Origin: Enterobacteria phage KhF2
Sequence record: KT184314.1
Length of the DNA stretch: 64,000 bases
Direction: 5' to 3' (one strand)
Shown: in pieces, positions 22,830 through 31,336 of the stretch
Numbering within the stretch: position 1 is the first letter of the stretch
Layout of the letters: every line of letters begins with the position of its first letter
Position numbers and translations under genes: made by a program
Notes under the pieces: model-generated
Databases searched by the model: none
The model's input: the letters and a program-made list of their open reading frames with translations, nothing else
Told to the model about the DNA's origin: nothing

Positions 22830-23687
22830 TTAGTCTTCTGTATCGAAGTCTTCATCTTCTTCGTCATCTGGGTCTGGCAAGTCTTCATCGTCACCATCAT
22901 CAGAATCATTCGAAGGTTTGTGGTCTTTTGCGTCTTCTTCAGTGATTTCACCGTTATCTTCAACACCATCAAGACCAAGCATAGCCAGTTCGTCTTCATC
23001 CAGTTCAGGTTCACCGTTAGCACCGTTGCCACCAGTGTAAGGTACAAGAGTATCAATGATAAACTGTTCCTGAATAGGTTTTGTCAGAACATTGTTCTCA
23101 AAAGTGTAGAAGTGAGTAGAAAGAATCACACTACCAAAAGAACCGTTACCGACTGCAATATCTGGATGAATTACATCATAGTTCTTGTCATCTTCATGTT
23201 TATCAGATGCTTGAGCTTTGATTTTCTTCATCGGCTGTTTAACAGCTACACGTTTACCATTTACTTCTTCAATCAGCATTACAGGGAATGACTGTTTAGC
23301 TGTCCACACAGCACCATCTTTATAAGCTGCTGCACGACTTACTTTCAAGATGTAGTAAGTGTCTGCTTCAAAAGGTGGTTTACAACCAAACTTCTCTTCG
23401 AAGTCGTCTGCATCAACTGCTTCAGTAGTAACTTTATCCCATCCTTCTGGATTTTTCTTAGACTTAGTAAACTCTTTAAACAGTTTGTTACCGTCTTCTG
23501 CCAGAATTGATACGCTGTAGTTACAATCTTTTCCTGGGAATTTCTTATCAATAGACTTACCTTTTCCCGGACGTGGTGAAGTATTCAGGTAATAAAACCA
23601 GACATCTTTCAGCAGGTAACGCAGAGTTTGACGTTCAGTACCGTTGTACTTCTCTACCGGAGCTTTCATTTTAACAACTTTAGACAT
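22830..23687 (-). CDS. single-stranded DNA-binding protein (gp32-like) with acidic C-terminal tail
   Basis: 285 aa; long acidic C-terminus (DDGDDEDLPDPDDEEDEDFDTED) typical of phage SSB interaction tails; replication-gene neighbourhood. Confidence 0.55.
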   Translation of the reverse strand: MSKVVKMKAPVEKYNGTERQTLRYLLKDVWFYYLNTSPRPGKGKSIDKKFPGKDCNYSVSILAEDGNKLFKEFTKSKKNPEGWDKVTTEAVDADDFEEKFGCKPPFEADTYYILKVSRAAAYKDGAVWTAKQSFPVMLIEEVNGKRVAVKQPMKKIKAQASDKHEDDKNYDVIHPDIAVGNGSFGSVILSTHFYTFENNVLTKPIQEQFIIDTLVPYTGGNGANGEPELDEDELAMLGLDGVEDNGEITEEDAKDHKPSNDSDDGDDEDLPDPDDEEDEDFDTED

Positions 23688-24200: not shown

Positions 24201-26148
24201 TTAATACAGGTGGAATCGTTGAGCTTTGACGTTGTTCTTCAGTATAGACTTCACCAGTCTCACGGTCAAACACTTCATCCTCATAATGAGGCAAAGAGTC
24301 ATCATAATGGTCTTCAGCTTCACCAATACCAAACTGTTGACGAATATTTTCTGCTGCGCCATCAATGTCAACACCACATCCAGAAGCTTTAATAAGACGT
24401 CCTGTATCTGGATTATACCAAGTATGACCAGCAATACCTGTTGACTTACCATGACGACGACACTTAGTTAACTTGATTTTTGTCAAGTTTTTCTTAACTG
24501 GGTCTGGGTCAACCTTGTTACGCATTAACAGAATGTTATTCATAGAAATCTGAAAATACGCACCAGAACCTTTGATATCCTCTTCAGAGATATCTCCACC
24601 TTCAGAGTTAGCTTTCTGACCACCTGCACTCTTACGAACGTGACATACGTTTACCTGCGCATACTGGTAGCGTTTGCAACGACGCAATAGCTCAGACAAA
24701 ACTTCTTCTTCATCCGTATCAGAACGTGACAGGGCTAACGTGATAGGGTCAAGAATGATAATCTTACAGTCTAAACTGTTAACAAGATAGTCAACAAACT
24801 CTAGCAGGTTATCTTGGTCAATTGCCCCTTGATGGTCAACGATATGGATACGACGGCCTTTAGATAGTTCTGCGTGTGCTCCTTTTAATTCATCCCAATC
24901 CCGTTCATCATAAGGAATCTCAGAAATCTGCTTGCTCAGGTGGATTGCACAGAGCATCTCCATCAACTCTTCATAGGTATCTTCTACAGGAATTACACCG
25001 ATATTATAATCAGTTTCTTTCCAAGCTGAGTAAATCATCTCACGAGTGTAAGCTGACTTACCTACTGAAGATGGTGCTGCAATAGTTGTAATCTCACCTA
25101 AACCGTAACCACCATAAGTCAGCCTGTTCAAATCTCCGAAAGATTCTGGGAAAGGAATCAATGGAATCTGACCACGATTCTTCATTGCCTCAAAACCATC
25201 TGCGAAGTTCTTGATACCAGCAGGGCAGTAACGGGGTGCATTGTAGATACGCTGCTTAAATCCTTCCAGAACTGTATCTTTTTCTTTATAGAACTTTGTC
25301 CACCATTCGTTAAGGTCTTTTACACCTTCTGGATACTGGAATAAACGAACCTTCTCAATAGGTAGGATACCAGCAGCCTCTTTAGTGGCTTTAGCACCTG
25401 CTTCATCGTTATCAAAGCACAAGTAAATCTCATCAAATGATGTAATGTACTGATAGTTATCCTTGATAGACTTGATGTTTGCACCTGATGGAACAGATAC
25501 GTGACAGTAATTCTTACGACGAGATTTGTCCTTAATCGCAAGAGAAGTCATATAGATTGCTGTCGCACATTCCATCTCACCTTCCCAGATGAATAGACGG
25601 TTACCACCTTCTGGAGCAATCCATGAACCGAACATTGCCAGTTCACCTTTAATGTCTCCAACACCACCAGAAAAGTCTTTTAACTTACCTCGTAGGTGCT
25701 CTTTTGGATGGTCTTCTGGGTAACGGTGACGAACACGATATCCAACATGCTCTAGCTTGCCATCTTCATTGCGTTTGTAAGTTGGGTAGAAATGCGCGTC
25801 AATTTCACCATCACTGTCAATGTCAACCTTGATACCCAAACGCTCAAGAACTTTTGCAGGAATCTTCCTGTCTTTCAAGTCCATCGCTTCAAGGTTTTCT
25901 TTCACATCGTCTAAATCCATTCCACGGAAAGTACGGTTTTTATTGTCTGAACCAGTAGAATAAGTGCTCACGATTTGTCCTTTATCAAAATCCCACTCTG
26001 GGAAACCTTTGTTACAACTAAAGCAAGTCATTGAATAAGAACCATCGTCATGATGATAGATTGAACCAGCATCTGATGAACCACAACGTGGACATGCGCA
26101 ATGACCAACAAACTGACCAGCCTCTTTCAATTTACGACCTTTAGACAT
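24163..26148 (-). CDS. bifunctional DNA primase-helicase (T7 gp4-like)
   Basis: N-terminal Zn-ribbon CPRCGS...CFSC, TOPRIM-like middle, C-terminal DnaB-type helicase with Walker A SSVGKSAYT; start set at MSKGRK with SD AAGAGGTG. Confidence 0.75.
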   Translation of the reverse strand: MSKGRKLKEAGQFVGHCACPRCGSSDAGSIYHHDDGSYSMTCFSCNKGFPEWDFDKGQIVSTYSTGSDNKNRTFRGMDLDDVKENLEAMDLKDRKIPAKVLERLGIKVDIDSDGEIDAHFYPTYKRNEDGKLEHVGYRVRHRYPEDHPKEHLRGKLKDFSGGVGDIKGELAMFGSWIAPEGGNRLFIWEGEMECATAIYMTSLAIKDKSRRKNYCHVSVPSGANIKSIKDNYQYITSFDEIYLCFDNDEAGAKATKEAAGILPIEKVRLFQYPEGVKDLNEWWTKFYKEKDTVLEGFKQRIYNAPRYCPAGIKNFADGFEAMKNRGQIPLIPFPESFGDLNRLTYGGYGLGEITTIAAPSSVGKSAYTREMIYSAWKETDYNIGVIPVEDTYEELMEMLCAIHLSKQISEIPYDERDWDELKGAHAELSKGRRIHIVDHQGAIDQDNLLEFVDYLVNSLDCKIIILDPITLALSRSDTDEEEVLSELLRRCKRYQYAQVNVCHVRKSAGGQKANSEGGDISEEDIKGSGAYFQISMNNILLMRNKVDPDPVKKNLTKIKLTKCRRHGKSTGIAGHTWYNPDTGRLIKASGCGVDIDGAAENIRQQFGIGEAEDHYDDSLPHYEDEVFDRETGEVYTEEQRQSSTIPPVLSEDADDCPFETE

Positions 26149-26341
26149 TAGCACCTCTTCGTTGTAGTTCTTCCTTCAATCCATTTTCAATCTTGTCCAG
26201 TTCATGAATTTCATCTGCAATCTCTTTCCTTCGTGATTCAACTCTCTTAAGACGTTCAATCATTACCTCATTGGAAAGAGATGAGAGTTCCACTAAACGG
26301 TGGTCAATAACTTTAAAATTGTCTTTTACTCTCATCTTCAT
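26141..26341 (-). CDS. hypothetical coiled-coil protein
   Basis: 66-aa ORF. Confidence 0.4.
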   Translation of the reverse strand: MKMRVKDNFKVIDHRLVELSSLSNEVMIERLKRVESRRKEIADEIHELDKIENGLKEELQRRGANV

Positions 26342-26349
26342 TCTCTCTT

Positions 26350-27093
26350 TTAAACTTTAATGATGGCTCTTAGCTTGTTCTCAAGGTCTGCAAGAGTACC
26401 ATTATTATGAATAATGTCACGCTCATATTTTGTAGAAATCCCATTTTCTGAAACATGTGATGAAACTTTGTCCACATTGTCTCTTTTTACTTCAATAGTT
26501 TGGTGTGCAAATCTACTCAGCCATTCAGCTTCAGAGTCAAATCTTAAATCACTGATTAAGACAAAACCATATTGGTTTCTAAGTGAGCACATTTCATGGA
26601 ATCTAACCATTCTTTTTTCAAGGTCTTTAGACCAGAACTTGTCGCCCATTACTTTACGGACAACTTCAGTACCCCAAACCTGTTGAATTTGTCTTGATGA
26701 GAATTTATACTTTTTACTAAACCCCAGACGTGTCAATAGAGTCGGTTTAGCAACCTTCTTAAGCTCCATGATTAATCGTCCGGTTAACTCTGACATAAGC
26801 TTGAAGTCCATATGGTAACGTTCATCTCTGAAGGTGAACTCCATAGCTTCCGTAACTTTAAACATCAGTTCAGAGTATGATAAGTCAAAAACCTGTGGAG
26901 TCTCTTTAGTTTCACCGTACAGGTCATTCCAAGTCAAGTCAAATATCTTTGATGCAGATAGTTTAAGGTTGTCTGCAAAGGCCATTACAGCAACATTGTA
27001 GCCAAACTCATCCTCTAAGATGTTCTTCACAATAGAACATGAGGTGTCTTTTCCAGAACGTGCCTTTCCAGTAAATGCGATAATATTACTCAT
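26350..27093 (-). CDS. deoxynucleoside monophosphate kinase (T4 gp1-like)
   Basis: P-loop GKARSGKDT at N-terminus, similar to T4 gene 1 product as I recall it. Confidence 0.65.
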   Translation of the reverse strand: MSNIIAFTGKARSGKDTSCSIVKNILEDEFGYNVAVMAFADNLKLSASKIFDLTWNDLYGETKETPQVFDLSYSELMFKVTEAMEFTFRDERYHMDFKLMSELTGRLIMELKKVAKPTLLTRLGFSKKYKFSSRQIQQVWGTEVVRKVMGDKFWSKDLEKRMVRFHEMCSLRNQYGFVLISDLRFDSEAEWLSRFAHQTIEVKRDNVDKVSSHVSENGISTKYERDIIHNNGTLADLENKLRAIIKV

Positions 27094-27154
27094 TTTATCT
27101 CCCTTAATTACTAAAAAGCCCCCAACTAAGGAGGCTTGTAAGATTTATAAAGAC

Positions 27155-27955
27155 TTAGTGCAGTTGCTCAGCAGACTCTTTTTCAGCCATAGCTGAGATT
27201 TGCTTCACAAAATCATCACCGAAGTTAATGCGTAGTTTCTCTTCAATGATTGAAGCACCAATGTTCACCAAAACATCATTGATTGCTTGCATACTAACGC
27301 CACCAGTCATTTCCTCAATGAACTCAATACTCACACCCATCATCTGTGACAGTTGGATTAGTGCAACGATATTCATCATCGTAGAGATAGCTGGAATCAT
27401 CAGTGCAACTTTCACCTGAAGTGGTTCAATGTCAGCTACAGAGTCATTTTCAACAGCTTCTTCCAAAGACTCTTTAGTTTGCTGGATAATCTCTTTGATT
27501 CGTGGGTTTAATTCTTCTACGCCCCAATCAAGTTTTTCATATCGTGAAAGTTTCTCTTCCATACGCTTCTCAAGAACAGCCATAACAGCACTCGTTGATG
27601 AGATAAGCGTATCAATAATGAAATCAGTGTCCTTAGTCAGCAACAGTTCCTTATCTTCGTCTGACATCCTGATATAGTCATTCTTTTGCATTTCATAAAA
27701 AATGAACTCAGCAAGTGCATCAACACCAACCGCAATAGATGCCAGAGCAAGTGTAGTGTCTGTTAACATCATGTTGACCTGTTCTGCAAAAGCACCGTTA
27801 TCAGACTTGTCTTCAGGCAAGTTATAGCTTGCAGGCATAAACTGTTCTGTGTAGTTGTTACCACGAAGAATCATAGCCATGCTTTCTACGGCATTGATTA
27901 AGAATGCTTCATCAACACCTTTCTCTTCAAGCATCTTTTCTACATCGATATTCAT
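27155..27955 (-). CDS. highly acidic hypothetical protein (early gene)
   Basis: 266 aa, large D+E excess; second gene of leftward operon from divergent region. Confidence 0.5.
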   Translation of the reverse strand: MNIDVEKMLEEKGVDEAFLINAVESMAMILRGNNYTEQFMPASYNLPEDKSDNGAFAEQVNMMLTDTTLALASIAVGVDALAEFIFYEMQKNDYIRMSDEDKELLLTKDTDFIIDTLISSTSAVMAVLEKRMEEKLSRYEKLDWGVEELNPRIKEIIQQTKESLEEAVENDSVADIEPLQVKVALMIPAISTMMNIVALIQLSQMMGVSIEFIEEMTGGVSMQAINDVLVNIGASIIEEKLRINFGDDFVKQISAMAEKESAEQLH

Positions 27956-27956
27956 A

Positions 27957-28379
27957 TTATTTCTCTCTCAGTTGGTTAAGTTTCTTTCTAGAACATTTTA
28001 AGTTTTCAGATGAAGAAAAGTCAAGTGTCTTTTCAGAACGTGGATAATAGTGCCTATCCCAAGAAGTTTCAACATCGTTAATCAGTGATGCTAGATTACA
28101 CAGGTCTGTACCACTTTGCAACCTCTTTTTAAGAGAATCTAGTAAAGCAACTGTGTCTTTAGCTTTACGTCTCGCTGTAGCAACATCTTTCATATGCTCA
28201 AATACAGAGCATTTTAAGTCATCTTCATAGTCTTCAGACAACTCTATTTCATGTTGTATATCAACCATTCTCCTGTGATGGTGAGCATATTCCCGTTGAG
28301 CAGCAATGTCAAGTTCTTCCAACTTCTGCAAAGCTCTAACAAAGTCAGCTATGTCTGGGTGAACAAACATTTTCTGCAT
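27957..28379 (-). CDS. hypothetical protein (first gene of leftward early operon)
   Basis: 140-aa ORF at the divergent intergenic region. Confidence 0.5.
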   Translation of the reverse strand: MQKMFVHPDIADFVRALQKLEELDIAAQREYAHHHRRMVDIQHEIELSEDYEDDLKCSVFEHMKDVATARRKAKDTVALLDSLKKRLQSGTDLCNLASLINDVETSWDRHYYPRSEKTLDFSSSENLKCSRKKLNQLREK

Positions 28380-28636
28380 GTAAGCCTCTTTTAAGTAGCT
28401 ATTAAGTTTTAATCTTTTATCTTAACGTATTCTATACGTTATACTTTAAAGCTTTTTAAAAGCTATTAAATAATCTTTTAAGAATTTTAAAGTATCTGTA
28501 TAGTTAAACTGTTAAGTAACCTTTTAAGTAAAAACCCACTTCGCAAAGATTAACACCTTGTCAAGTGCATTGTCAACTTGCTTTTTATAATTTTTTGCAG
28601 TAATGTATGAGGTTAATGATTTTAGAGGGAGTAAAA

Positions 28637-31336
28637 ATGGAAAACGTAGATTTTAAAAACTTACATTTAGTTGGTGATACAGAAACTGATGGTTTACTCC
28701 TTGAGTTCACTAAAGTGCACGTAATGGCCTTTGCAGACTATAAATCTGACGATGAAGAGCCACCTGTATGGGTCTTTACAGATGAACCTATTCTCGGTCA
28801 CAAGTACACCAAGTACATCAAGGGTGGCTTACGTGAAGGTATTGAGTTTGCGTTAAAGGCAAAACGTCTTTGCATCCATAATGGTCTCGGTTATGACTGG
28901 TGGGTTTTCAATCACATTGCACCTGATTTATGGAACTTTGATAATCCAAAGTGTAAACCGTGGAGTAATTTCTTTCAGGATTCTCTTATCCAGTCTCGTG
29001 TTCAGTGGATGGATAGACCAACTCCAAAGGGTTATAAAGGTGCTCATGGTTTGGCTGCATGGGGTGCTCGTGTTGGTGTTCGTAAACCAGAGATTGAACA
29101 CTGGGGTGTGTGGAATGCAGAAATCTTCACTCGTGTTGTAGAAGATATCCGTATTAACGCCAAAACTAAACGGGCACTTGATAACGAGTATCTCAAGCTT
29201 AAGAAGTGTGGCATAGACACTTATGAAACTTACATGAGAGCTAAAGAGACATCTTTCTGGATGAGCCAACAAGCTATCAATGGTTGGAAAGCTGATAAAG
29301 AGCTTATGGAGTTTCATGTAAAGGAACTTGACAAGTTGACTAATGAGCTTGCTTCAGAGGTTGAACCACATCTACCTCCAACTATTAAGACCAAAGGTAA
29401 AGTCACTGGAGAAGAGTTTGCAAAAGCTTGGAATGAGTATGTTGAAGCATTTGGTCATGCAGATGGACTGAAAAGAATTACCAAGTACCCTAAGACGAAG
29501 TATCGTCAGCAGGTTCGTAATGGTGAGATGCAGACTTACGCTATCAAACCTTTTGGTAAACCAACTACCAAGATTTTCAACATTGAGAAGCGGAACTGCT
29601 ACACTCCAACTAACACAGTTACTGGAGAAGAGTACAAGGAAGGTTTTGTAGCAATGAAGGATGCTCGTGCAATTTGCAACGAGTTGAATGCAAAGATTGG
29701 TAAGAAATGCAAAGACTGGAAGCCAGTAAAAACAGTCAAAACTGTGAAGTACTACAACAGTCATGTTGTTAACCACTTTGAACTTGAGTCAAGTCGCTAT
29801 ACAGGTTTGATTGATGCACCATATACACCAATTGAGTTCGAAGTTTCTCGTATGACTCAGGTAGCAGTTGTTAAAGACTACTTGAAATCAGTTGGTTGGA
29901 TTCCAGATGACTGGAACTACAAGAAAGACTCAGATGGTCGCCCTGTCAAAGTTTGTCGTTTCAAAGACAACAAAAAGATGATTACAAAGCATCCTAAGTG
30001 GCAGGAGATGGTTGAACGGTGTGGCTTGAGTTATGTTGAACATGAAGGTGTCCAGTACATTGAGCATAACTGGTCTGTGAAGAAGTACACAGATTTGCTT
30101 GAGCCTTGCTTAATCCGTACTTCACCAAAACTTACTGAATCATCTTATGATACGATTGAAGGCGAGCTTGGACAGAAGATTGCTAAATACTATACTTTGA
30201 TGCACCGACGTAGAACTATTGAGAACTCAAAGGATGATGAAAAAGGTTGGTTGAACCAGATTCGTCCTGATGGTCGCCTTAGTGCTGGTGCAATGGTGTT
30301 TGGTACTTCAACTGGACGTATGACACAATATGGTATTGTAAACGTACCGTCTGGTGCTGCTGTCTATGGGGAACCAATGAGGGCAGTGTGGATTTGTGAA
30401 GAAGGTACTAACGTCGTCTCTGTAGACATGAACTCAGCCCAGCTAGTTCTTCTTTGTAACTTTATGGGTGATAAAGAGTTCACCAAAGCGGTAACGCAAG
30501 GTAAAGAAGAGATTGAGTTTATTCGTCAAGAAGATGGACGCTATTACTGCAAACATTTTGATGAGTACCTCAACCCAGAGATTGATAAGTACCTTCGCTA
30601 TGACTCTGAGAATGACCTTTACGTTGTCTATTCAGGGACTGATGCACACACACTGAACAGTATTTACTTTAGCTTGAATGATGAGCAGGATATCTTGACT
30701 TGTCGAGCTACTCAGGATGAGAATCTTCTTCATGAGATTAGTAAAGGTCGTAAGAAAGCTAAGAATGGTATCTATGCACTGCTGTTCGGTGCAGGGGATG
30801 AGAAGTTTGCTAAGACGATTAAAGCTGCAACTACTCAGGAAGGTGCACTGACTAAACAAACTTACTTTATTCGTTTGCCTAAAATTAAGAAGCTACTAGA
30901 TGACTTGGAAGCTGACTACAAAGCAACTAAAAAGGCACTTGAAGAGGTGTTTGGTAAGACTGCTGCAATCTCTAAAGGGGGTTTTGTAAAGGTTGCTGGA
31001 GCTTGGTTGTGGTGTAAATCTCCACACAAACTGTTGAACTACCTTTTGATGGGTTCAGAGGCCCAGATTCAAAATGAGGCAATTAACCTTGCTTGTCGTC
31101 GCATGATTGCCGAAGGGTTGATGAAGCTAAATGGGCGTAAACCAGCTATAGGTGCTCGCTTATTGTGCGCATATCACGATGAGACTAGCTGGGAATGTCC
31201 AGAGAGTATGACGGCAGAAGTAAAAGCAGTTACTGATTGGTATTACGGGCAAGCTTCTAAGAACTTAGGTCTTAAGAAAGAAACACTTGTAACTGGTACA
31301 GGTAAGGTTGGAAAGAGTTGGCTTGAGGTTCACTGA
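28637..31336 (+). CDS. DNA polymerase, family A (T7-like) with 3'-5' exonuclease domain
   Basis: start at ATG 28637 with SD GAGGGAG; exo motif VGDTETDGL; polymerase motif C YHDETSWE; about 900 aa. Confidence 0.85.
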   Translation: MENVDFKNLHLVGDTETDGLLLEFTKVHVMAFADYKSDDEEPPVWVFTDEPILGHKYTKYIKGGLREGIEFALKAKRLCIHNGLGYDWWVFNHIAPDLWNFDNPKCKPWSNFFQDSLIQSRVQWMDRPTPKGYKGAHGLAAWGARVGVRKPEIEHWGVWNAEIFTRVVEDIRINAKTKRALDNEYLKLKKCGIDTYETYMRAKETSFWMSQQAINGWKADKELMEFHVKELDKLTNELASEVEPHLPPTIKTKGKVTGEEFAKAWNEYVEAFGHADGLKRITKYPKTKYRQQVRNGEMQTYAIKPFGKPTTKIFNIEKRNCYTPTNTVTGEEYKEGFVAMKDARAICNELNAKIGKKCKDWKPVKTVKTVKYYNSHVVNHFELESSRYTGLIDAPYTPIEFEVSRMTQVAVVKDYLKSVGWIPDDWNYKKDSDGRPVKVCRFKDNKKMITKHPKWQEMVERCGLSYVEHEGVQYIEHNWSVKKYTDLLEPCLIRTSPKLTESSYDTIEGELGQKIAKYYTLMHRRRTIENSKDDEKGWLNQIRPDGRLSAGAMVFGTSTGRMTQYGIVNVPSGAAVYGEPMRAVWICEEGTNVVSVDMNSAQLVLLCNFMGDKEFTKAVTQGKEEIEFIRQEDGRYYCKHFDEYLNPEIDKYLRYDSENDLYVVYSGTDAHTLNSIYFSLNDEQDILTCRATQDENLLHEISKGRKKAKNGIYALLFGAGDEKFAKTIKAATTQEGALTKQTYFIRLPKIKKLLDDLEADYKATKKALEEVFGKTAAISKGGFVKVAGAWLWCKSPHKLLNYLLMGSEAQIQNEAINLACRRMIAEGLMKLNGRKPAIGARLLCAYHDETSWECPESMTAEVKAVTDWYYGQASKNLGLKKETLVTGTGKVGKSWLEVH

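Follow-up and report, generated by a model that had tools for sequence, protein, structure and literature searches.

The ORF97 and ORF98 Genes

The window analysed here is the whole stretch of 64,000 nucleotides from Enterobacteria phage KhF2 (KT184314.1). It is 99% identical to phage KhF1, which places it in Felixounavirus. On the minus strand, a 140-aa ORF (27957–28379) and a 266-aa ORF (27155–27955) lie exactly where an earlier note on this DNA had placed them by reading frame and translation. They are, as that note had also claimed, the first two genes read leftward from the region 28380–28636, and they head the leftward unit. The right-hand boundary of the region agrees with our reading as well, since the best Shine-Dalgarno start of the DNA polymerase is the ATG at 28637.

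The 140-aa protein matches phrog_4039, labelled as of unknown function, over its full length (residues 1–140 of 140, E 4.4e-83). The 266-aa protein matches phrog_4251, labelled "minor tail protein" (residues 2–265 against profile positions 1–264 of 266, E 4.3e-145). These are the families of ORF97 and ORF98 of phage Felix O1, and the identity to the Felix O1 proteins is 99.3% and 96.6%, respectively. Judged by sequence, the two ORFs are direct orthologues of Felix O1 ORF97 and ORF98 with no sequence-level difference to set them apart, and we use these names below; the error lies in the name of the ORF98 family.

ORF97 starts with an ATG preceded by AAGAGG. The ATG of ORF98 lies one base past the ORF97 stop codon (TAA-T-ATG), and therefore ORF97 and ORF98 are translationally coupled. 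Over 200 phage records contain conserved DNA of both genes, and the dN/dS of the 266-aa gene is 0.07–0.15, which indicates that ORF98 is under purifying selection. In Felix O1, transcripts of both ORF97 and ORF98 were detected by RT-PCR (PMC3185647). Conservation, dN/dS and the detected transcripts show that both ORFs are real genes rather than chance reading frames. Together they form a translationally coupled two-gene cassette that heads the leftward DNA-replication operon of a Felixounavirus.

Control Region and Terminator

The divergent control region between ORF97 and the DNA polymerase (28380–28636) was read from the sequence. On the minus strand, it contains tandem TTGACA boxes at 28576–28571 and 28564–28559 and a candidate −10 element TAATCT at 28552–28547; a TATAAT is found on the plus strand at 28586–28591. 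The block TTGACA-N6-CTTGACAAGGTGTTAATCTTTGCGAAGTGGGTTT is conserved in phage Bas63 and in locus L006, and largely conserved in the distant locus L002. A consensus promoter scan called no promoter in the control region, and promoter-like sites between 26000 and 29000 are no commoner than chance. The promoter function of the region is thus putative and is assigned by conservation alone. The same region carries four CTTWWAAG octamers (28388–28528) and an 8-bp inverted repeat (28423–28441). The octamer occurs 24 times in the window against 9 expected, and 4 of the 24 copies lie in the control region.

Between ORF98 and the dNMP kinase gene, the scan revealed a hairpin with a U-tract that resembles an intrinsic terminator (27113–27137, minus strand). 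It is annotated as a terminator in KhF1. The hairpin AAGCCUCC-uuaguu-GGGGGCUU-UUU occurs at the equivalent place in Bas63, L006 and L002; in L002, both arms of the stem are changed yet still paired (GCCCCU/AGGGGC). There is no space for a promoter between the terminator and the dNMP kinase start, and therefore the downstream genes would need read-through.

Composition and Fold of ORF98

ORF98 contains 50 Asp/Glu residues against 21 Lys/Arg (net charge −29, pI 4.2). Its charge density of −0.109 per residue is the most negative among the window ORFs longer than 150 aa in a rough longest-ORF selection. ORF97 is not acidic (26 Asp/Glu against 24 Lys/Arg and 7 His, net −2, pI 6.4), so the description of one of the two proteins as strongly acidic holds, and it holds for the 266-aa protein only. 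In distant ORF98 homologs, the net charge falls to −14, or −0.05 per residue, and no more than 11 acidic positions are shared by five or more of six diverse members. Conservation involves 58 hydrophobic core positions and only 10 invariant residues. Charge and overall hydropathy suggest that ORF98 is soluble. Two conserved hydrophobic helices at about 67–86 and 181–205 (Kyte-Doolittle 19-residue mean 1.6–1.96) make a membrane-related role possible.

Neither protein gave a match reaching the threshold in Pfam, NCBIfam or PDB sequences, in agreement with the note's statement that no enzymatic motif is recognisable. PDB profile searches with either protein found nothing, and scanning all family members against Pfam yielded nothing but coiled-coil noise below the threshold. 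Among 1.84 billion proteins, ORF98 has a family of just 10 representatives; wherever the genomic context was inspected, the carrier was an Ounavirinae-like phage.

An initial AlphaFold run with a 13-sequence alignment (at least 43% identity) was unusable, with a pLDDT of 46.8. Adding four distant members from an exhaustive HMM search raised the pLDDT to 88.8 (pTM 0.88) and gave a confident all-alpha bundle of 13 helices. This model has no fold relative in the PDB or BFVD. No fold similarity was found to known tail or baseplate proteins, to Ocr or ArdA in the PDB comparison, or to replication accessory proteins (clamp, loader, SSB); neither sequence nor fold similarity to replicative helicase loaders (T4 gp59, lambda P, DnaC) was seen. 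ORF98 also showed no sign of a DNA-binding fold, whether helix-turn-helix, sigma-like or other. The note had named structural resemblance to an ordinary replication or structural protein as an outcome that would refute its host-takeover or DNA-mimic reading, and none was found. ORF98 is an acidic all-helical protein whose predicted fold is lineage-restricted.

Conservation and Synteny

ORF97 is 98.6–99.3% identical across Felixounavirus contigs, and it is still 40–50% identical where PolA is 52–63% identical. Its conserved motifs are HHRRxVDxQHEIELSE, RRKAKDT and W.R.Y.PR. A weak PHROG match of ORF97 to a "gam-like host nuclease inhibitor" was not significant (E 0.024) and was dropped. ORF98 turned out to be the fastest-diverging gene of the replication module: its identity is 28% where that of PolA and the primase/helicase is about 90%, and 37–44% where theirs is 92–96%. 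The order PolA, (ORF97) ORF98, dNMP kinase, small ORF, primase/helicase is kept in all relatives examined, down to 20–28% ORF98 identity. The position of ORF98 is fixed in all relatives examined to a PolA identity of about 78%, and the gene is undetectable in more distant ones. In the distant locus L037, a 284-aa acidic ORF occupies the position of ORF98; at an hhalign E value of 0.21, homology is not demonstrable.

These features bear on a possible function in gene regulation. ORF98, perhaps with ORF97, would act as a transcription or timing regulator: a co-activator, an anti-repressor or a factor at the control-region repeats. Both genes adjoin the conserved array of palindromic CTTWWAAG octamers with its inverted repeat, ORF97 is rich in basic motifs as well as very strongly conserved, and loss of a late-gene activator would produce a strong fitness defect. 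Moreover, no RNA polymerase modifier has been recognised in Felix O1-type phages, and there is no explanation of how these phages time their gene expression (PMC3185647). However, L002 keeps the repeat array and lacks ORF97 at the locus examined, a DNA-binding fold was not seen in ORF98, acidic proteins bind DNA poorly, and knockdown of an ORF97 homolog has no fitness effect (see below). We therefore regard a regulatory role as improbable.

The Minor Tail Protein Label

RefSeq and PHROG label ORF98 a minor tail protein, which would make it a component of the tail or baseplate. The label is widespread, and well over a hundred records in the databases give this wrong name to the gene next to the DNA polymerase. 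The gene is "hypothetical" in most original GenBank submissions, and the tail label is found in RefSeq copies and in other records with PHROGs- or RAST-type-derived labels. We found no experiment from which the label stems, and its earliest appearance that we saw is in phage SBA-1781.

In Felix O1, ORFs 96, 97, 98, 99 and 101 all reach their maximum at 25 min by RT-PCR, a class that includes the DNA polymerase, dNMP kinase and primase/helicase; the tail fibre and other morphogenesis ORFs (72, 73, 76, 77) peak at 60 min (PMC3185647). ORF97 and ORF98 are thus "middle" genes and do not belong to the 5-min class, and the idea that they are expressed first does not stand (PMC3185647). Late expression, which would have told against the note's host-directed reading, is likewise not seen in Felix O1. 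ORF98 is located among replication genes, with the DNA polymerase on one side and the dNMP kinase and primase/helicase on the other, and it is co-timed with them, not with the 60-min tail genes.

Virion data point in the same direction. ORF98 is absent from the list of 17 proteins obtained by shotgun mass spectrometry of the Felix O1 virion and is not one of the 22 proteins modelled in the Bas63 virion by cryo-EM. The authors of the VpaE1 study, who had virion mass spectrometry data, keep the homolog (ORF97 of that phage) as "hypothetical". Cryo-EM of Bas63 leaves one C3-symmetric helical density at the spike tip without an identity, and ORF98 could in principle be this unassigned density at the tip of the puncture apparatus. 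However, the authors assign it to a gene of the baseplate module, and two helices are visible per 120-degree repeat. Also in favour of a tail role, the genes called Fit in a knockdown screen of phage SUSP1 are mostly structural.

Thus, none of the marks of a minor tail protein was found in ORF98: neither presence in the virion, nor location in the morphogenesis module with late expression, nor a tail fold, the model being unlike any tail protein structure. The "minor tail protein" label conflicts with the virion data, with the place of the gene and with the timing of its expression, and there is hardly any chance that it is correct. The agreement of these three lines bears out the view of the acidic protein as non-structural, despite its database label.

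The label matters, because Felix O1-like phages are mainstays of diagnosis and therapy against Salmonella and E. coli, and it already steers interpretation. In the SUSP1 study, the ORF98 homolog appears under the name "tail protein" in a list of Fit genes that are mainly structural. In a Citrobacter phage study, a difference in plaques and lysis was ascribed to a variant of a "minor tail protein" affecting adsorption. This gene is probably an ORF98 homolog, because the homolog is the sole gene so labelled in the 50 kb examined of a similarly annotated genome.

Knockdown Fitness and Restriction

The laboratory host NEB10Beta lacks the K-12 restriction systems hsdRMS, mcrBC and mrr and is recA1, RecBCD+. 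In a CRISPRi-ART screen of SUSP1 in this host, the ORF98 homolog agp048 is among only 19 fitness-critical (Fit) genes (score 1.58, p 0.029, 7 guides). Nearby, PolA (agp046), the ORF104 homolog (agp054) and an exonuclease (agp055) are also Fit, and the Fit class as a whole is dominated by structural genes. The flanking genes agp047 (the ORF97 homolog), agp049 and agp050 were scored Not Fit, and this speaks against a polar artefact. The result comes from a single pooled knockdown screen in one relative, and no single-guide validation of agp048 was found in the text examined. For Bas63, the text of the PhageMaP paper lists no essentiality value for genes 48 and 49, the latter being the ORF98 homolog. 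The ORF98 homolog is needed for normal SUSP1 growth in a restriction-deficient laboratory host, and ORF97 is not called fitness-relevant in the one available screen.

The earlier note had suggested a host-takeover or DNA-mimic anti-restriction factor; the latter would be a protein of the Ocr/ArdA type. The acidic helical composition of ORF98 and its place among the first two genes of a transcription unit are what such a protein would have. However, per residue it carries less than half the charge of Ocr, this density is not conserved, the fold has no match in the PDB, and the timing is middle, not immediate-early. Several restriction-modification systems restrict Bas63 even though it carries the ORF98 gene, and Bas63 has a separate Lar-like restriction-alleviation gene. 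Finally, agp048 is Fit in a host without hsdRMS, mcrBC and mrr. By charge density, fold, protection from restriction and dispensability, ORF98 does not belong to the Ocr/ArdA class. This suggestion is largely refuted, and we give it next to no credence. ORF98 is fitness-relevant and is not an anti-restriction decoy.

A role in triggering host defence was also considered. The DRT7 trigger in Bas63 is Bas63-035, and the papers on retron Eco2 and VIPR concern other genes.

Another form of host takeover deserves more weight. ORF98 may inhibit a conserved host factor, for example RecBCD or another nuclease, during the replication phase; its acidic surface could then act as a loose DNA mimic, by analogy with T7 gp5.9 or lambda Gam. 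The protein is acidic, non-enzymatic and helical, and its charge density lies between those of T7 gp2.5 (−0.065) and gp5.9 (−0.154). Its sequence changes fast while the fold and a net negative charge persist, which is the expected outcome if surface charge outweighs exact residues. The T7 host-factor inhibitors gp5.5 and gp5.9 also sit within replication genes. In a recA1 RecBCD+ host, losing a RecBCD inhibitor can be costly, and the Fec phenotype of lambda red gam mutants provides the analogy for such a cost. Against this, distant members carry less charge (net −14) with few acidic positions conserved, ORF98 has no fold likeness to Gam, gp5.9, Ocr or other PDB entries, and T7 gp5.9 is itself annotated as "not essential". 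The fixed gene position is more typical of a core function. In addition, targets of the RecBCD type are conserved among enterobacteria, which leaves the rapid divergence of ORF98 without explanation. On balance, inhibition of a host factor is a serious but rather unlikely explanation.

A Putative Role in DNA Replication

The explanation that we prefer, tentatively and without considering it probable, is that ORF98 is a stoichiometric, non-enzymatic accessory of phage DNA replication. Synteny, co-expression in Felix O1, the SUSP1 fitness result, purifying selection and absence from the virion sets lead to this reading. Transcription would begin between the polymerase gene and ORF97, at a putative promoter of host type whose tandem TTGACA boxes are conserved, and would meet the conserved hairpin terminator directly past ORF98. 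As a consequence of the terminator, ORF97 and ORF98 would outnumber the products of the dNMP kinase and primase/helicase genes, to which transcription would extend by read-through. Translational coupling and the conserved terminator suggest that the product is needed in stoichiometric amounts. ORF98 would act by binding without catalysis, since it matches no family or motif and conserves a hydrophobic core with few invariant residues; it may serve replication or recombination. Its partners might be the T7-like polymerase, the primase/helicase, the candidate SSB (ORF104) or replicating DNA ends. ORF97, small and highly conserved, may assist or regulate the same process.

Several observations speak against an accessory role. 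ORF98 diverges far faster than its putative partners, which is unexpected for an obligate replisome subunit, and its predicted structure is unlike that of a clamp, loader or SSB. The origin of the fitness result in one pooled screen of one relative and the two conserved hydrophobic helices weigh against it as well. It is an unlikely further step that ORF98 founds a new structural class, either as a subunit of the T7-type replisome or as a nuclease-blocking protector of replicating phage DNA, with ORF97 as its co-translated partner. If this is true, the class is a fitness-critical acidic 13-helix bundle, so far seen only in Ounavirinae-like phages. With the label corrected, the replication machinery of Felix O1-like phages may include a component without a known counterpart. 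ORF98 is also a specific gene to consider when these phages are engineered or their host range is interpreted.

Comparison with Known Systems

T7 Ocr (gp0.3) and ArdA are like ORF98 in being acidic, helical and without an enzyme motif. Ocr has 29% Asp/Glu and −0.239 charges per residue, against 19% and −0.109 for ORF98. T7 expresses Ocr before any other gene and can do without it where restriction is absent. ORF98, by contrast, has middle timing, contributes to fitness in a restriction-deficient host and leaves Bas63 open to restriction.

T7 gp5.9 and lambda Gam share with ORF98 an acidic, helical, non-enzymatic nature and synthesis during replication, and the gp5.9 gene adjoins the polymerase and exonuclease genes. 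In contrast, gp5.9 has only 52 aa, a fifth of the length of ORF98, and its annotation is non-essential; the charge density of ORF98 is lower, and no fold similarity to gp5.9 is detectable.

ORF104 (22830–23687) has a gp2.5-like tail and is a better SSB candidate than ORF98. T7 gp2.5 has an OB fold and an acidic C-terminal tail ending in Phe, whereas ORF98 is all-helical and has no such tail (...EKESAEQLH). A blastp comparison of ORF98 with gp2.5 was not significant (E 4.3), and ORF98 does not qualify as a gp2.5-type SSB. Nevertheless, the two proteins are of similar size (232 and 266 aa for gp2.5 and ORF98), have an acidic pI and are non-enzymatic. T7 gp2.5 is stoichiometric, growth-essential and encoded among the T7-type polymerase and primase/helicase genes, and the neighbourhood of ORF98 is alike.

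Identity, Fold and Divergence of ORF98

The KhF2 sequence belongs to a myovirus of the Felix O1 type, genus Felixounavirus. Enterobacteria phage KhF1 shares 99.2% identity with region 26000–29000, which matches 255 phage records. A few records with this Felixounavirus sequence carry the names "Staphylococcus phage SA1" (UNVERIFIED_ORG) and "Campylobacter"; these entries are probably contaminated or misassigned. ORF translation gives proteins of 140 aa (27957–28379) and 266 aa (27155–27955) on the minus strand, exactly where the earlier note had placed two leftward genes. We call them ORF97 and ORF98 after their Felix O1 orthologues (99.3% and 96.6% identity); the orthologues are genes 48 and 49 in phage Bas63 and agp047 and agp048 in phage SUSP1. 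Both ORFs are already known from databases, which they entered with the sequencing of the Felix O1 genome. The acidic member of the pair is ORF98 (50 Asp/Glu against 21 Lys/Arg, net charge −29, pI 4.2); ORF97 is near neutral (net −2, pI 6.4). By a rough longest-ORF selection, ORF98 has the most negative charge per residue among window ORFs longer than 150 aa.

Searches of Pfam, NCBIfam and PDB sequences with single sequences and family profiles placed neither protein above threshold. Exhaustive comparison of the ORF98 profile with 1.84 billion representative proteins gave only 10 matches, six full-length (about 266–277 aa) and four short fragments; the genomic contexts examined all belong to Ounavirinae-like phages and share one gene order. 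With a shallow alignment, the AlphaFold model failed (pLDDT 46.8). It turned out that adding four distant members to the alignment yields a confident model of 13 helices (pLDDT 88.8, pTM 0.88), which matches an independent BFVD model of the homolog from phage Moogle with a TM of 0.94. Foldseek of this model against the PDB found no relative (best E 0.2, TM ≤0.24), and a BFVD fold search returned its own family and no outside relative. The confidently predicted fold, without a known relative, is new. Phage EC6 has its homolog in two parts, of 181 aa and 87 aa (BFVD K4HYY2, K4I3I5; RefSeq NC_027369), both called "minor tail protein" in RefSeq; this split is a frameshift or sequencing error.

We compared the relatives' proteins with those of the window. 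Within Felixounavirus, identity is 91–99% for the polymerase (PolA), 98.8–99.8% for the primase/helicase, 98.6–99.3% for ORF97, 90–99% for the dNMP kinase and 84–99.6% for ORF98. The corresponding values are 93–95, 92–96, 62–76, 55–71 and 37–44% in SUSP1- and Moogle-like relatives, and 90, 89, 58, 56 and 28% in the metagenomic relative L006. The three most distant contigs compared retain PolA (52–63%), primase/helicase (58–70%), ORF97 (40–50%) and dNMP kinase (27–29% or none), and ORF98 is not detectable there. A profile search recognises an ORF98 homolog of about 20% identity in the distant relative L002; ORF97 is absent from L002 within the locus retrieved. The dN/dS of ORF98 (0.07–0.15) indicates purifying selection, and the polymerase and helicase (0.01–0.11) are under tighter constraint. 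Family-wide, invariance is limited to 10 residues, hydrophobic character is conserved at 58 positions, and the net charge is always negative, weakening from −29 to −14. The family preserves the fold and general acidity, not surface detail. In every relative where ORF98 is recognisable, its place within the replication module is fixed. It is the fastest-evolving gene of this module, though fitness-relevant, which is new here.

At the distant locus L037 (4401–5862; PolA 63% identical), the ORF97 homolog and the dNMP kinase gene are separated by two genes, whose products have 204 aa and 284 aa. The 284-aa product is acidic, helical-looking from sequence and collinear with the C-terminal 100 residues of ORF98 (hhalign E 0.21, not significant); it may be a diverged positional equivalent of ORF98. 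Phage LinBro (L040, 29852–33373) has two "DNA polymerase" CDS on either side of an "endonuclease VII" gene. The best PolA tblastn segments are 714 aa, not 899 aa, in five IMG/VR contigs (L010, L022, L024, L025, L031) and 752 aa in L013. Interruption of the polymerase in these relatives is probably due to homing-endonuclease insertion; the window gene is intact.

The Tail Protein Annotation of ORF98

PHROGs (phrog_4251), RefSeq and many GenBank records label ORF98 a minor tail protein. The original submissions mostly read "hypothetical", and the tail label stands on their RefSeq copies; the earliest among the records examined is phage SBA-1781. We found no experiment supporting the label, and three sets of virion data speak against it. 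The term "minor tail protein" occurs nowhere in the Felix O1 genome paper, whose shotgun mass spectrometry of virions identified 17 proteins, gp98 not among them (PMC3185647). The authors of phage VpaE1, with MS data on 22 virion proteins, kept the ORF98 homolog (their ORF97) "hypothetical" despite a tail-named best BLAST match. Of the Bas63 virion gene products, which number at least 23, the cryo-EM study modelled 22; gp48 and gp49 are unmentioned. One helical density at the spike tip has no assigned protein, which would leave room for a tail role; the authors ascribe it to a baseplate-module gene. We consider it very improbable that ORF98 is a tail protein. The label is unsupported, and this correction is new.

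The near-identical Felixounavirus isolates Eifel1 and Eifel2 (PX596620, PX596621), which are Citrobacter phages, differ by one extra ORF and a 12-bp deletion in a "minor tail protein" (Pharokka/Phold) with a C-terminal alpha-helix; the deletion was tied to adsorption or DNA injection (PMC12892995). In the first 50 kb of LinBro, annotated like the Eifel phages, the ORF98 homolog is the only gene so labelled. Therefore, the Eifel variant probably lies in the ORF98 homolog.

Operon Layout and Control Elements

A strong Shine-Dalgarno precedes ORF97, and ORF98 starts one base past the ORF97 stop (TAA-T-ATG), so that the pair is translationally coupled; the coding regions share 14 nt in one distant relative. 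Farther left lie the dNMP kinase, a 66-aa ORF, the primase/helicase, small ORFs, the acidic ORF104 and the exonuclease. The rightward neighbour (plus strand) is a T7-type family-A DNA polymerase with its best-supported start at ATG 28637. The ORF finder begins it at 28607 (909 aa), and KhF1 and Felix O1 at 28616 (906 aa). The only good Shine-Dalgarno in 28607–28637 (plus strand), GAGGGAG, lies ahead of ATG 28637 (899 aa), and this start agrees with the 898–899 aa gene calls of L002 and L006.

The 257-bp polymerase–ORF97 intergenic region (28380–28636) contains two perfect TTGACA hexamers on the minus strand (28576–28571 and 28564–28559, N6 between), with a weak candidate −10, TAATCT, 18 nt past the first box on the same strand. 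It also contains a perfect TATAAT (28586–28591, plus strand), four of the window's 24 palindromic CTTWWAAG octamers (28388, 28444, 28475, 28521) and a perfect 8-bp inverted repeat, TAACGTAT-tct-ATACGTTA (28423–28441). The TTGACA block is near-identical in Bas63 and L006 and recognisable in the far more distant L002, which has the same tandem boxes and at least seven octamers. Such an architecture may represent an array of operators or an origin of replication. A consensus promoter scan called none in 28380–28636, nor did Whichard et al. find one at this Felix O1 region (PMC3185647); thus, it is only conservation that points to a leftward promoter.

Directly 3' of ORF98 is a terminator-like hairpin with a U-tract (27113–27137, minus strand), annotated as a terminator in KhF1. 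Bas63, L006 and L002 all have the hairpin at this point; the two stem arms are changed in L002, with pairing preserved. The space between the hairpin and the dNMP kinase start is too small for a promoter. Conservation of the hairpin suggests regulated read-through into the dNMP kinase and primase/helicase. ORF97 and ORF98 would form a leader cassette produced in excess, and read-through would supply the downstream enzymes.

Expression, Fitness and Possible Function

In Felix O1, RT-PCR places the maximum of ORFs 96, 97, 98, 99 and 101 at 25 min ("middle"), and neither the 5-min class nor the 60-min tail-gene class includes them (PMC3185647). This supports neither the "first-expressed" of the earlier note nor the late expression that it had named as speaking against its reading. 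Transcriptome-wide CRISPRi-ART of SUSP1 in E. coli NEB10Beta called only 19 genes "Fit", including agp048 (ORF98; score 1.58, p 0.029, 7 guides), named "tail protein (ambiguous)" by its authors. In this region the polymerase agp046, the ORF104 homolog agp054 and the exonuclease agp055 are also "Fit"; agp047 (ORF97), the dNMP kinase and the small ORF are "Not Fit". The primase/helicase is a false negative, as the authors concede. A polar artefact for agp048 is unlikely because the genes on either side are "Not Fit".

The ORF104 homolog of the window (22830–23687, minus strand), a 285-aa member of phrog_3877 (function unknown), terminates in a long acidic stretch, ...DDGDDEDLPDPDDEEDEDFDTED, resembling the C-terminal tail of T7 gp2.5 (...EEADEDGDF). 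It is a plausible single-stranded DNA-binding protein for this phage group, not annotated as such to date.

By its sequence, model and published data, ORF98 is an acidic helical, non-virion, middle-expressed protein with a lineage-restricted fold, and its homolog matters for fitness when the host is permissive. We tentatively regard it as a possible accessory of phage DNA replication or recombination, which would act by binding, not catalysis, and in stoichiometric amounts. So fast a divergence speaks against its being a tight subunit of the replisome. The main rival reading, rather unlikely though conceivable, is that ORF98 inactivates some conserved factor of the host, for instance RecBCD, while the phage replicates: losing a RecBCD inhibitor can be costly in a recA1 RecBCD+ host such as NEB10Beta. 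The fixed position, presence in every relative where the gene is recognisable and fitness defect disfavour a typical accessory anti-defence gene. Neither the replication accessory nor the host-factor inhibitor explains everything, and a regulatory role appears distinctly unlikely. ORF97 poses a puzzle of its own. This protein shows very high conservation, carries basic and His-rich motifs and is co-translated with ORF98; its homolog was not called fitness-relevant in the sole screen and is missing in the retrieved part of one lineage. For ORF98 this amounts to a helpful correction, and the gene is well suited to experimental work, but the discovery is not a startling one.

The acidity of ORF98 had led to the suggestion of a DNA-mimic anti-restriction factor, which now seems barely credible. 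The genes hsdRMS, mcrBC and mrr are presumably missing from NEB10Beta, so anti-restriction cannot be what makes agp048 necessary there. The charge per residue of ORF98 (−0.109) is also far weaker than that of Ocr (−0.239), and lies between those of T7 gp5.9 (−0.154) and gp2.5 (−0.065).
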